A stretch of 64,000 nt of DNA, taken from the NCBI RefSeq assembly GCF_988243305.1, contig NZ_OZ547136.1; one strand, 5' to 3'. The position numbers were made by a program. Positions 1-6,000 of this stretch are shown here, piece by piece. How positions within the stretch are numbered: the stretch's first letter is position 1; every line of letters starts with the position of its first letter.

Positions 1-3000
1 GATGTCGCCGATCACAGTCTGTGGATTTCACCTTCAAAAGAAGTTGCTCTTTCGAACTTTATTTCGGCTTACCACCAGCCAGCCGGAACGGTTGGCGATT
101 ACCGTAAGCTTTTATCCGTAGGTGCAGTCCACGTAAAAGACATGCTTGATAAGGGCGAGCTTACGCCTTTTCAGCAAGATGTTCATACTCTGGGCCTTGT
201 CGCCTGGCACTTATTTAGCGGTATGCGCATGTCGCCAAAGAGTCTGGAGAAAGTACAGGACAACATGCTAAACAGCCAGCACTGGTATTCATCTGTATTA
301 CGGGATGCCGTTGCCGCAAAATTCACTTCTGCAACAGAATTCTTTGATGCCCTGAAACAAGCCGAACCTGCTGGCAAGGATATTCCAACATTTGATGATA
401 CTGAGCTTGACCCTTACCGACATGCTATCAATCACGCTCGTCAATACCCGGAAGACGATGGCTTTCAGTTTCAGGTCGAAACAGTCGACAAAGAAGTCTA
501 TATCTCGAAAGGAAGGCTCGTGAAGGCTTGGCTGAATGTTGGGGGACAGGGATACGATCCGTCAATTAATTTCCAGGTTCTGAAGTTTTTAAAGCAGGTT
601 GAGCGGCTTTCTTCAGTTAAAACAACGTATCTACCTCAAATTCGTGAATTCGGTATCGCATCAAAATCATCAAGCCTATATATGGTCACGGATCAGGTAC
701 AGGGAGAAACCTGGGATAAAATAGCGGTCCCCGATGATGAAAAAATCGACCTCATTGGTAAGTTTGTCGCCGCCGTTGAGCACTTACATGGTCTGGGTGT
801 TTCTCACGGGGACATCCACCCTGGCAATGTGATATTTGAGACACAGAGCCGTTTGCTTTTTCTCATCGATATCCCCGATTTTTCACCGTCCGGTGACGAA
901 CCTAAAAATCACAGTTACAGCCCTGAATACATTGATAATTGTACTTCTTTTGAACGTGACAACTATGCAGTGATGAAGATGTCCTGCGAGTTGCTAGGCA
1001 TGTCATGGGGGCTGGAATCAGACATTTATCCGACAATCGCGAATGCTATCCGAGCAGAGCTGGAAGATCCGGTTTTTGGGTTTAAGGATTTAGGCCGCTT
1101 TAAAAAAGCGATAGATAGTAATGACCTGGTGCCAGAACAAGACCTGATAGAGATTACTGCAGGAAATGCCGATGAAATAATCTCTATTCTGCCTGATAAC
1201 GGGCATCTGTATGTCAAAGTTAAGTCAAATCCTAAAGCGCCAGCTGAAGTAAATGTGACTTTCTCTGGGATTGGTGGCAGTTTTACTGCGGTGTTCAACA
1301 AAGATCAGAAGACGCTGGTTCATGGCTTCAGGCCACGGGCTCGCGTCACAATTCGTAAGCAAGATATTGATGAAAGCCAGTTCGAAATTGATACTGGCAT
1401 CAAGATTATTCCCGGCAGTCCGCAGGATCTGTCGGCGTTGACAGTATTGCTTAATGAAGAAGAATCTTTTGCGCGGGCAATCGAGTTGATTGCCGCAACT
1501 GAAGATGTTCAGGTACAAGAGCCACTTACGCTTCAGCTAAAAGATACCTTTGCAAGGCTTGATAAGCAGACGCTTGAACCTTCTTTAAGAGAAGTGCTGG
1601 AAATCCCAACAGTGAAACTGTGGCGCGCCATTCTGGATACTGAAACAGAATCTTATCCAAACATTGAAATCAGCGGTGAAGTGGTCCCGGTTGCAGATGC
1701 TCATGGAGAGCTTCTTCTCCCTTACTCTGCTGATGTTGATCCACTCGGTGCTTTCAGAAGTAGTGATGAAGTCGAAGCCTTACAGGTCGATCAGGAAGGT
1801 GTTGAGCGATTTATTGGTGAAGTGTCACTTAAGAAGTCAGAGCTCAAAGAGATTCGTCTTGTCAAAGTTAGTTCAGCAGCCTTCAAGCTGAAGGATTCTG
1901 ATATTGTCTTCTTCCGTACAAGGCCGACTCGTGCATCTTATCAGAAACGTAAACGCGCACTGGAACGTCTCCTAGATCGAGAAAGTGTGCTGCCTGACTT
2001 AATTGACTTGTTCGATCCATCCTGCAAACAGGCGGCTCAAAATTATGGTATCACTCTCAGCGATACCGATTTTGCCAGATACGACCGTGAAGATCAGCAC
2101 GGAAACAAGATCAGTCTGAATGAACAGCAAAGAAAGGCGTTTAACAAACTGGTCAATAATGGCCCTCTCTCCCTGCTTCAGGGGCCACCGGGGACCGGTA
2201 AAACCGAGTTCATCGCGGCCTTTGTTCACTACCTGATCGAGAAACAGAATACCAAACGCATTTTACTGGTCAGCCAGTCACACGAGGCTGTGAATACAGC
2301 GGCCGAGCGTATCAGAAAGCATTGTTCCCGGCTTGGTACAGAGTTGGACGTTGTCAGGTTCAGCAACCGAGAGGGAGCCGTTTCCCCTGGCTTAAAAGAT
2401 GTGTACTCACACGCAATCACAACAGAGAAGCGCGAACTCTTCAATGCTGAAATTAAGTACCGTGTTGAAGCATTGAGTGAAGCTATTGGTCTGGAGCCGG
2501 GATTTATTTCGGGTGTTGTTCTTGCAGAGCTCAATTTGTTCAGACAAATCGATCACCTTGAGAAATTGCTCTATCAGGTTAACAATTTAACGGATTCAAA
2601 TGAGAGCAATGAACTGAAAGATATTGCAGTCGAACTCGATTTTTCCATCCGCTCTAAGCTGAGTCAGGAGTATGGGATTAACTTGGACAATGGCGTGAAG
2701 GTCTCAGCAGCAAAAGACATTCTGATTTCCAAGCTATGTACAGAGTATGGTGTCAGACCTGATGAGGCAAGACGAGTAAAAGCATTAGCTAAAATATCCC
2801 GTGATATGCAGGATGCTATGTCGGGAGAGCGAGTGAACCTGGACGAGTTTTATTCGCGCTCCAGGCAGTTAGTGGCTGGCACATGCGTTGGTATTGGACA
2901 AGGGCACATTGGCATTCAGGAGAATATCTATGACTGGGTGATTATTGATGAGGCGGCGCGCTCGATTTCAAGTGAGCTGGCCATTGCAATGCAGTCAGCC

Positions 3001-6000
3001 CGGCGTGTCCTGTTGGTGGGTGACCACATGCAGCTTCCTCCATTGTACTCAGATGCCCACAAGGCGGCATTAGCGAGGAAGCTGGGTATCAATAACTCCC
3101 GCACTGAAATTGACGAGGTATTACGAAGTGACTTTGCCCGAGCCTTCAACTCTGCTTATGGTGCGCAGACGAGTGCAGCTTTGATGACCCAGTATCGTAT
3201 GGCTCCACCGATTGGTAATCTCGTATCGAAGACGTTTTATGACGGGAAGCTTCTGAATGGAGTACGGGCAATTCCGGATGTCTATCAGCAAGCTCCGGAA
3301 GCGTTACGTAGCGTTGTAACCTGGCTTGATACTGCTAATCAGGGCCACCGAGCACATCATCTTGAAGATCGCGGAACAAGCATTTACAACCGATGTGAAG
3401 CTGACGAGATTATTTCTGTTCTTAAACAGGTGTCAGAGAATGAAGAATTTGTCGCTAAGCTTTCAAAACTTGTTAGCAAAGATGAAGCCGCTATCGGCGT
3501 GATATGTATGTATGCCGAACAAAAGCGGTTACTCCGTCAGAAATTCAATCAGGAAATCTGGAGCGAGGGATTTAAGGACATTGTTAAAATTGACACTGTT
3601 GACAGTTATCAGGGAAAGGAAAATCGGATCATTATCCTGTCACTGACGCGTTCGGATAAGCAGCATAGCCCAGGTTTCTTACGCGTTCCAAACCGTATAA
3701 ATGTCGCGATGTCACGCGCAATGGATCGACTGTTGATTGTGGGTAATGCCGATATCTGGAAGGGAAACAATAAAGAATTGCCATTAGGCTACGTTGTAAG
3801 TTATATGGCTGAGCGAGGTCAGGAAGCTGGATACAGGTTCCTCTCTGCTCAGCAGGGAGGCAAAAAGAAATGATATCTGATAACAAAGTTACCTATCATG
3901 AGGTTGACTTCCTGCTGCCAGCACAGAGGTTTAACATTCAGTTTTCCTATGTTTCCCAGAAGGGGCTGCCATTTATCCGGGAGTTTGTGCTGAGACTTGT
4001 TCATGTAGCTTCGATGAGCAAAGCACAAATAGCAACCTATTTCGGCCTGACCCACCGTGAGACAGAGGAGGCGATTTCCGATCTTGTGCAGCGTGGCGAA
4101 TTGACGCTCTCCTCAGACGGCAGACTGGCCTTAACAGACAAATCAAATGGCTATTTTTCAGAGGTTGGCGAGATACCGCATCTTTCAACTATTCAGGACA
4201 GTGGCTGTACCTTATCCTTTGATTTAGCCACATTTAGTTGCTTCAGCAACCAGGCTTTTCAGGACCACTGGAGGGGAGGGGTAACATTAAAGGTTGATGA
4301 CAACAACATTTCTCAAAGTGAGAAACTGGTTGAGAAGCACTTTCAATACCAGTTTAATCAAATCCTGGATAAAGGTTACCTGTCTCACCTGCAGGTTCAG
4401 GTCGGAAAAGAACAACCTTCTATCTATACCGTTAATTCTGTTAATAAGCTGCGGCAAATACCACTCCGTTTAACAACGGAATTTAAAATGGATAGCGATG
4501 GTAAGGCTGTCGAGCGTGAAGACTATGAACAGTTAAATAGTTCGGAATGTGTTCATGAGTTAATGGCTGTTGAGATAGCCAGGTTATCACGGCATAACAA
4601 TACCATGAGTATTTTTAAGGCCATGCAATCCATTAACGATGACCTTACGCTTAAGCTGTTTGACTCTAAAACGAATCGACTTAATCCGTTGTTTATCAAA
4701 GATATGCAAGCACTGGAAGAATACTCGTCCTCAGGCAGAACGACTTTTTTAGGTCCGGTTTATTCTAAAAACAACTGGGAAAAGCTGCAGAAAGCTCTGG
4801 CACCAGCGCTCAATCAGCGTATCAGAGATAAAACTGATTATGGAGGTAGCCCGTTCATCTGGGTGGCACCATCAGATCCCTACTGGTCAAAAAGCATTCG
4901 ATTTATCTCAAGCCTGAGCAATTTTCTTAGCAAGTCGGCTACGAAGGATAAGCAGCTGTATAAACCGGTGCTGTACGTACCTGTCCGGGATGCAGCTGAT
5001 GCTCGGGTTGCCAGACAGTGGAAGTATGAACTTGGGCAATTCCATGAGTACGCTAAAGGACTAGTTGAGGGGCTGTTAGATGGTAATGTTGAGATCCTTC
5101 ATCTTGAGGATGAGTTATCTGCCGTTATCTATCATATTTCTCAACCCGAAATATTGCCTGTAACGATGCCACTGGGCTTTATCACAACGAACAAAGAAAC
5201 GGTTAAGATTATTGGTACTCTGGTTACTGAATATATCAAAGGCACCACTGGTTTTGATAAGTTTCATGACTGTGGCGCAATTTCGGCAATGATTAAGAAA
5301 GGTTGAGCTGTTGGAACAGGAGGTATGGGGCATGTTTGCGTATTTTTATGGAAAGAAATAACCCAATGACGGCGTTACTCTCCAACTGGGTTGACGCGTG
5401 CTGCCTGTTAATGGCTCCGCTGAATGATGCCCTATACCGTTATGTGATGAACACCCGCCTGGGAACCATCCACGGCACGTCGGTCGGCGAACTGCTGGCG
5501 TGGATCAAAGAAGATGAAAACCCTCGCAAAGGCGAGATGGTGCTGATTATTGAAGGCCATAAAGCCCAGGATGACGAACTGCCCGCCGATGCGCTGCGTA
5601 CGCTGGCGCTGTTGTAGGCTGAGCTGCCGTTGAAGCAAGCGGCGGCGTTGGCGGCAGAAATCCACGGAGTGAAGAAGAATGCGTTGTATAAGTATGCGCT
5701 GGAACAGCAGGGGGAATAAGCCCCTGCTGCCGGTTTTGCCGGGTGGCGCTTGCGCCTTACCCGGTCTGCTCATTGGGACAAGCGTTTAGTTAACGGGCAC
5801 CGCCTCAAACACCAGCGTTTCCAGCGGCTGCAACGTAATCACCGTCGCGTTTTTATACTCAACGGGCACGGTTTTATTGCTGCCGTATACCGCTTTCAGA
5901 CTAAACTGCGCCACGTCTCCTGTCGGTATTTCGAAATCCTTAGCCAAATCCAGATAGTAGGCCTGTGGCTTATCCGATGGGTTGCGCAAACCGAGAATGG

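Follow-up and report, generated by a model that had tools for sequence, protein, structure and literature searches.

A SEC470-type Mokosh type I operon with a degenerate HKD motif in contig NZ_OZ547136.1

Identity of the operon

The 64,000-nucleotide stretch of contig NZ_OZ547136.1 (RefSeq assembly GCF_988243305.1), named here the window, opens with two adjacent genes on the plus strand. Positions 1-5306 most probably (we place the probability at roughly 0.93) represent the 3' three-quarters of mkoA and the whole of mkoB, i.e., a type I Mokosh operon of the "E. coli SEC470" subtype, located in an integrase-bearing genomic island. The module is already known: it is one allele of a system whose anti-phage activity has been validated by experiment.

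Both proteins are matched by the PADLOC models for MkoA and MkoB, which were built in 2023. Against PDLC03921, MkoA scores 1707 bits, with positions 336-1603 of 1607 covered and the remainder falling outside the window; against PDLC03923, MkoB scores 503 bits over positions 4-452 of 454. This PADLOC run, which the original prediction had proposed as a check, settled the identity as Mokosh type I. In Table S2 of Millman et al. (2022, Cell Host Microbe; preprint 10.1101/2022.05.11.491447), the system SG199 is listed as a verified "Mokosh type I" of E. coli SEC470, with MkoA of 1652 residues ("Kinase-Helicase") and MkoB of 478 residues ("HTH"), and Table S8 labels it "Verified". The 399-nt start of the 6737-nt SG199 insert that is printed there has a 100% match in E. 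coli TUM1886, and the N-termini of TUM1886 MkoA and MkoB agree with the approximately 400 residues printed for each SG199 protein. When the window is completed with the sequence of E. coli 675SK2, whose DNA is 100% identical across positions 1-5306, MkoA shares 1611 of 1652 residues (98%) with the TUM1886 allele and MkoB 471 of 478 (99%). The 41 MkoA substitutions that separate it from the SEC470-type allele are concentrated in the first 210 residues, the NERD region, and seven more are found in MkoB. The operon, the gene order, the 4-nt gene overlap, the protein sizes (1652 and 478 residues) and the upstream remnant of a TOTE primase gene are the same in SG199 and in the window-type locus.

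The pair shows the features by which Mokosh type I is recognized: an Upf1-like (COG1112) SF1 helicase with intact ATP motifs, a kinase-like domain N-terminal to it, an adjacent and co-oriented mkoB with an N-terminal helix-turn-helix (HTH), a PLD-family fold in MkoB, and a match to curated hidden Markov models (HMMs). The exception is the catalytic HxK(x)4D motif (HKD), which MkoB lacks. This does not exclude the pair from Mokosh type I, because the verified SEC470 member is also devoid of the motif; the degenerate HKD sets the SEC470 subtype apart within Mokosh type I. DefenseFinder names subtypes of its own, such as Mokosh_Type_I_A.

The 3' part of mkoA occupies positions 1-3873 and comprises codons 363-1652. 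Frame 1 of the plus strand, open at base 1, runs for 1290 codons until it meets the TGA at 3871-3873, and the 1243-residue open reading frame (ORF) of the annotation track is only the portion after its first ATG, as the original prediction had noticed in stating that the protein must be longer. In E. coli 675SK2, mkoA is 4959 nt long and encodes 1652 residues (locus coordinates 10915-15873). In its numbering, the window opens with the first base of codon 363, which specifies the Asp of an HRD motif; the 5' 1086 nt, with the coding sequence for the NERD domain and for the N-lobe of kinase-like domain 1, precede the window. The mkoB gene (3870-5306, plus strand, 478 residues, matched by PADLOC at full length) starts inside the mkoA stop codon. 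The coupling signal, read from the sequence, spans 3855-3873 and consists of GGGAGG (3855-3860), placed 9 nt before the ATG, and the ATGA overlap (3870-3873), in agreement with the translational coupling predicted earlier. The annotations of E. coli 675SK2 and TUM1886 show an identical 4-nt overlap, which is seen in Hahella too. No promoter- or terminator-like sites between mkoA and mkoB rose above shuffled expectation. An open frame of 1290 codons in DNA of 46% GC, combined with full-length HMM matches, is far beyond chance.

The start of mkoA in related copies deserves a comment. A candidate TTG start lies 12 nt (four codons) upstream of the annotated ATG, at approximately 10903 of the E. 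coli 675SK2 locus. The printed SEC470 DNA reads AAGGAG-N7-TTG GAA GTA GAA ATG, with which the E. coli copies closely agree, and the ribosome-binding site of the TTG is better than that of the annotated ATG. The consensus of mkoA homologues likewise begins four residues earlier (MxxxxW).

The strain name attached to the verified system is ambiguous. RefSeq NZ_CP007594.1, named E. coli SEC470, and H10407 (NC_017633.1) are both 5,153,435 bp long and carry an H10407-type Mokosh locus at identical coordinates, and in the tables of Millman and co-workers two different IMG genomes appear under the name SEC470. The verified 1652-residue system is therefore best traced by sequence.

Other candidate families were considered and rejected. 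Matches limited to the helicase core were obtained with the PLuB system (NCBIfam NF040671; 133 bits against a cut-off of 999) and the IGHMBP2 helicase (TIGR00376; 171 bits against 348.9). PD-T4-6 (37 bits) and MADS MAD6 (26 bits against 460) gave local matches to the catalytic core of the second kinase domain only, and Gabija GajB and RecD gave local matches to generic P-loop cores, below their cut-offs.

Domain organization of MkoA

The full-length MkoA contains, from the N-terminus, a NERD nuclease-like domain, a pseudokinase-like domain (K1), a complete kinase domain (K2), a middle region of about 325 residues and an Upf1-like SF1B helicase of 5'-3' polarity. The NERD domain was detected by Pfam at residues 53-135 (6e-7), and its presence in Mokosh type I was noted earlier in a review (PMC10952713). 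Glu70, Asp72, Glu85 and Lys87 of this domain are invariant in 27 MkoA homologues, a pattern that would be expected of a PD-(D/E)xK-type site.

K1 extends over residues ~208-485, and its C-lobe is encoded at positions 1-369 of the window. The Pfam Pkinase match is marginal (E 0.017 over residues 270-447). A K1 profile (residues 205-490) compared with the PDB retrieved protein kinases only, with phosphorylase kinase as the best match (5e-4) and the HRD motifs aligned, and the AF2 model of the domain has a confidence score (pLDDT) of 83. The HRD is invariant; however, Arg252 stands in place of the beta3 Lys, Ser368 in place of the catalytic-loop Asn and Ser380 in place of the DFG Asp, and each of these substitutes is invariant in the 27 homologues. 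With three catalytic residues replaced, K1 is predicted to be a pseudokinase. K2 (residues ~520-735, positions 472-1119) is catalytically complete: Lys537, the His-Gly-Asp at 631-633, Asn638 and Asp652 are all retained. Its motifs HGDIHPGNVIF and LIDIPDFS are encoded at 805-837 (HGD at 805-813) and 862-885, respectively, and it is recognized by Pfam Pkinase (1e-5) and, through a family profile (residues 515-740), by PDB kinases (1.7e-13). K1 and K2 can be aligned with each other around HRD/HGD (hhalign E 5e-5).

The middle region (residues ~736-1060, positions 1120-2097) has no Pfam or PHROGs match and no PDB sequence match better than E 0.05. PF19974 (TCAD9), precomputed on some homologues, was suspected in this region, but the model is kinase-like and its match overlaps K2. 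The C-terminal ~590 residues (positions 2098-3873) form the helicase, identified by Pfam AAA_11 (1e-37) and AAA_12 and by PDB matches to Upf1/NAM7 (1.7e-31), DNA2 (2.7e-24), IGHMBP2 and Sen1. All seven helicase motifs, including Walker A, Walker B and motifs III-VI, were located, among them Walker A GPPGTGKT at 2182-2205 (with Lys1096), IIDEAA at 2941-2958, GDHMQLPP at 3019-3042, QYRM at 3190-3201, VDSYQGKE at 3598-3621 and NVAMSRA at 3700-3720. The original prediction had recognized a kinase C-lobe-like segment at the window start, a second kinase-like domain with the two motifs given above, some 350 unassigned residues and a complete Upf1/DNA2-like motif set; the domain searches bear out each of these, the unassigned stretch being closer to 325 residues.

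MkoB and its degenerate HKD motif

MkoB has a winged HTH in its N-terminal part (residues ~33-93, positions 3966-4148) and ends with a PLD-like fold (residues ~270-478, positions 4677-5303), both on the plus strand. Searches of the protein against Pfam, NCBIfam and PHROGs returned no family, and its family profile found nothing meaningful among PDB sequences; the PLD-like domain came to light through fold comparison only. The AlphaFold model, built with 42 homologues, has a pLDDT of ~90 for residues 230-478 and lower values in the N-terminal half. Judged from this model, the C-terminal domain resembles PLD nucleases, with NucT, Nuc and Zucchini among the top matches. A Foldseek comparison of the model with AFDB50 retrieved uncharacterized family members only, and no annotation was gained.

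A profile search of 1.84 billion representatives yielded 383 relatives of MkoB, of which 97 full-length ones were aligned (mafft). Glu408 is kept in all 97, Gly436 (14 residues after His422) in 96 and His422, whose codon lies at 5133-5135, in 83. The residue two positions after the His is Lys in 11 of the 97 representatives and Ser in the window MkoB, which reads His422-Ile-Ser424...Leu429 and contains H.K....D nowhere. The complete HxKxxxxD occurs in only two of the 97, in both beginning at the aligned position of His422. Across the motif, SEC470-type MkoB has the same sequence as the window protein. The C-terminal domain appears to derive from a genuine PLD nuclease, most of the catalytic motif having been eroded. 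The table of Millman et al. (2022) is in line with this reading: the SEC470 protein is entered there as "HTH", whereas MkoB of H10407 is entered as "HTH-PLD". A comparison by hhalign of the MkoB family with the single H10407 MkoB sequence gave no significant alignment (probability 0.4%); the homology of the two C-terminal domains consequently rests on the fold and the shared His position.

Some relatives of MkoB carry annotations of other kinds. The AlphaFold database (AFDB) entry A0A7C9G4N5 (996 residues), whose alignment with the MkoB model spans 491 columns, carries the annotation of a double-stranded-RNA-binding motif (DRBM), and this hints that some family members read dsRNA. A similar MkoB-like module is found at residues 3-452 of another representative (P0259, 997 residues), which may be the same kind of protein. 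The relative A0A2A5G675 is annotated as "Restriction endonuclease".

Distribution and linkage of the gene pair

The mkoA-mkoB pair was matched in 331 of 5426 complete E. coli genomes (~6%), and many E. coli strains have chromosomal DNA that matches positions 1-5306 with 100% identity. Homologues of MkoB with 55-74% identity are encoded in Cupriavidus, Hahella chejuensis and Vibrio cholerae, each directly preceded by a protein of about 1655 residues with NERD, Pkinase and AAA_11/12 matches. The Hahella pair adjoins a DndB gene and an MmeI-like restriction-modification (RM) gene. The V. cholerae pair lies between a Toprim/zinc-ribbon primase gene and traF-traH-traG, inside a conjugative element, and is cargo of that element, like the defence hotspots of SXT-type integrative and conjugative elements (ICEs). 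The pair is a conserved, mobile unit, and the linkage in other genomes, which the original prediction had left to be checked, is confirmed.

The E. coli island begins beside clpA with a tyrosine integrase and carries IS1, IS421, YfjI/DUF3987 and inovirus-Gp2-like genes. No tRNA was found at the clpA-proximal end of the island in the 675SK2 locus, and no tRNA attachment site is claimed. Directly upstream of mkoA, the E. coli copies contain a decayed TOTE-system primase gene. The fragment of this archaeo-eukaryotic primase is frameshifted, lies at 10395-10730 in the 675SK2 locus and at 8753-9101 in a second locus (L002), and is annotated under every match listed; the SEC470 upstream fragment is matched in 431 E. 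coli genomes. The primase fragment travels with the Mokosh operon.

Function and possible mechanism

According to passages and tables of Millman et al. (2022; 10.1101/2022.05.11.491447), Mokosh systems protect E. coli when they are expressed from native promoters, and anti-phage activity is reported there for the SEC470 system, which is 98-99% identical to the window pair. A corresponding role of the window allele is predicted from this identity, and the guess of a function in phage defence made in the original prediction gains its support from the same verified system. In those passages, Mokosh is described as a helicase combined with a PLD nuclease, and mutants in the ATP site of the helicase (Walker A) as well as in the PLD active site, made in Mokosh systems that the passages leave unspecified, lose defence. 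Another line of data comes from phage T4, which evades the type I Mokosh of a uropathogenic strain only with both the Alt ADP-ribosyltransferase and glucosylated DNA (10.1101/2025.11.20.689424). Such a requirement points to phage DNA being read or cut at some step, and to a protein target that could be disabled by ADP-ribosylation. No published mechanism of type I Mokosh was found in the searchable literature.

It is proposed that MkoA and MkoB are made in a fixed proportion from one transcript and act together as a complex. The Upf1-like motor would load on phage-specific nucleic acid, which might be RNA, an RNA/DNA hybrid or unmodified phage DNA, and ATP-driven translocation would license the effector step. 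The nuclease step could then fall either to the NERD domain of MkoA or to a non-canonical site of MkoB; of the candidate domains in the two proteins, NERD appears likelier than the PLD-like one. NERD is slightly favoured because its catalytic residues are invariant and the HKD of MkoB is left without Lys and Asp. MkoB would serve as a nucleic-acid-binding adaptor or regulator, and the K1-K2 pair, with K2 possibly controlled by the pseudokinase K1, might be a switch operating via autophosphorylation or via phosphorylation of a phage or host target. In its most novel form, this wiring would make MkoB of this widespread subtype a non-catalytic "pseudo-PLD" that is joined to a winged helix and serves as sensor or adaptor for nucleic acids, with killing moved to the NERD domain of MkoA and gated by the pseudokinase-kinase pair and the Upf1-like motor. 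We put this form forward tentatively and consider it rather unlikely as a whole; if true, the subtype would be wired differently from the "helicase plus PLD nuclease" under which Mokosh has been described.

Alternative explanations

The strongest competitor of this wiring is the canonical Mokosh scheme left unchanged, in which MkoB is the nuclease effector, acting through a variant PLD site (His422, Glu408 and others), MkoA is the helicase/kinase sensor, and NERD is accessory or inactive. It is a serious possibility, although short of probable. The description by Millman et al. (2022) and the loss of defence in PLD active-site mutants speak for it, together with the PLD nuclease fold predicted for the C-terminal domain (NucT, Nuc, Zucchini), the conservation of His422 (83/97), Glu408 (97/97) and Gly436 (96/97), and the two lineages that retain the full HxKxxxxD at the aligned His422 position. 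However, the HKD Lys and Asp are absent from the window MkoB and from most of the family (+2 Lys in 11/97), the table of Millman and co-workers labels SEC470 MkoB only "HTH" and H10407 MkoB "HTH-PLD", and the PLD mutants come from a Mokosh system that the available passages of that report leave unspecified. An explanation of another kind, that the copy in this genome is a decaying, non-functional remnant in an island eroded by insertion sequences (IS), is improbable. Its neighbours are indeed remnants (an RsmI fragment and an enterotoxin gene cut by IS3), four copies of one IS3 element are present in the window, and the 5' end of mkoA with its promoter lies outside; but both frames are intact, no frameshift or stop interrupts the 5306 nt, and the DNA is 100% identical to copies in more than 300 E. 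coli genomes.

The original prediction took the pair for a candidate two-gene conflict system of the kinase-helicase kind, hitherto undescribed and matching no named system. This is very hard to maintain. It is understandable given that RefSeq names the products only "AAA domain-containing protein" and "hypothetical protein", that the UniProt/AFDB relatives of MkoB are all "Uncharacterized protein", and that MkoB has no NCBIfam or Pfam family, but it is refuted by the full-length PADLOC matches to MkoA and MkoB and by the 98% and 99% identity to the allele matching SG199, i.e., near-identity to a system verified in 2022; DefenseFinder subtypes exist as well. The probability that the pair is instead a housekeeping helicase (Upf1/DNA2-like) of RNA surveillance or DNA repair, accompanied by an accessory regulator and without an immune role, is close to negligible. 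The nearest solved relatives of the helicase domain are Upf1, DNA2, IGHMBP2 and Sen1; however, no more than 331 of 5426 complete E. coli genomes have the pair, its island carries an integrase and IS elements and it has defence-related neighbours, the GC content of the two genes (44-47%) lies below that of the flanking genes (~54%), and anti-phage activity was shown directly for a near-identical allele.

Several points weigh against the assignment to the SEC470-type Mokosh and the mechanism derived from it. The comparison with SG199 covers its printed parts (399 nt and approximately 400 residues per protein). The N-terminal 362 residues of MkoA lie outside the window, and the intactness of the whole gene is deduced from the E. 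coli copies with 100% identity. The nuclease activity of NERD is predicted from motifs only, while the published model names the PLD domain of MkoB as the nuclease, and the strong conservation of His422, Glu408 and Gly436 makes a non-canonical site in MkoB possible. The Mokosh of CFE331, used in the HIDEN-SEQ study (10.1101/2025.11.20.689424), may belong to another subtype than the window pair. Finally, one group reports in a recent survey that type I Mokosh could not be purified (10.1101/2025.07.10.664194), and the mechanistic steps given above are inference.

Relation to other systems

The Mokosh type I of the enterotoxigenic E. coli (ETEC) strain H10407 (SG202) shares with the window pair an MkoA composed of kinase-like and Upf1-like helicase parts, and the mkoB behind it likewise overlaps mkoA and encodes an N-terminal HTH. 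The H10407-type PADLOC models also recognize the window proteins, PDLC03920 matching MkoA with 418 bits and PDLC03922 matching residues 12-248 of MkoB with 49 bits. However, H10407 MkoA has 1215 residues, its printed sequence starts directly with the kinase-like region, and, as read by eye from that sequence, it appears to have a single kinase-like domain and no NERD. H10407 MkoB is longer (602 residues), contains a canonical HxKxxxxD (SHAKIIVCD) and is annotated as PLD; its C-terminal domain and that of the window MkoB cannot be aligned at the sequence level. In Mokosh type II (MkoC, e.g., E. coli YjhR), one polypeptide makes up the system; its HKD is active, and it has neither kinase nor NERD nor winged HTH.

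The animal MOV10L1/Zucchini (PLD6) pair of the piRNA pathway also belongs among the nearest known systems, but Zucchini is a catalytically active dimeric HKD nuclease, unlike the window MkoB. For K1-K2, the JH2-JH1 domains of JAK/TYK2 and the tandem kinase immune proteins of plants offer an analogy only, the kinase fold being the sole sequence relationship. Nhi and Nhi-like immunity resembles MkoA in that a single defence protein has a NERD nuclease domain fused ahead of its SF1 helicase, and a review lists NERD for both Mokosh type I and Nhi-like systems (PMC10952713); Nhi differs in being a single protein without kinase domains or an MkoB-like partner.

Neighbouring features in the window

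The setting beside an rsmI-like remnant and IS-disrupted genes, from which the original prediction had argued for horizontal acquisition, was confirmed, and the argument itself is supported. The GC content is 44-47% over mkoA and mkoB, compared with ~54% in the genes to the right. Immediately downstream, at 5303-5614 on the plus strand, lies a fragment of RsmI (16S rRNA cytidine1402-2'-O-methyltransferase) covering model positions 202-253 of 287; it is an annotated pseudogene in E. coli 675SK2 also and may mark the island junction. An IS3 element (6219-7432) is inserted in an enterotoxin gene, whose remnant (7435-9012, minus strand) is shortened by it to 525 codons, compared with 629 residues in E. 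coli 675SK2; no NCBIfam model exists for this remnant. The downstream flank of TUM1886 is different: past an IS66 remnant, about 1 kb downstream, it contains M48 peptidase and type I restriction R-subunit genes, so that IS66 and a type I RM system take the place of the RsmI remnant and the enterotoxin gene. The same IS3-family transposase ORF (296 residues) occurs four times in the window, at 6219-7432, 26510-27400, 45174-46064 (minus strand) and 52675-53565 (minus strand), three copies being identical over 891 nt and one 95% identical. Four IS3 copies in 64 kb suggest an IS-rich Escherichia or Shigella-type genome.

Concluding remarks

The identification corrects a false lead: defence-system databases have included the module since 2022-2023, and it calls for no claim of discovery. 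What remains of interest is the mechanism of Mokosh I and the mismatch between the subtype and the description of the family. The verified SEC470-type Mokosh I departs from the description "helicase plus PLD nuclease", as its MkoB has a PLD fold without the catalytic Lys and Asp and its MkoA has gained a NERD-like domain and a second, degenerate kinase domain. With approximately 6% of complete E. coli genomes carrying the system, it also bears on the prediction of host range in phage therapy.

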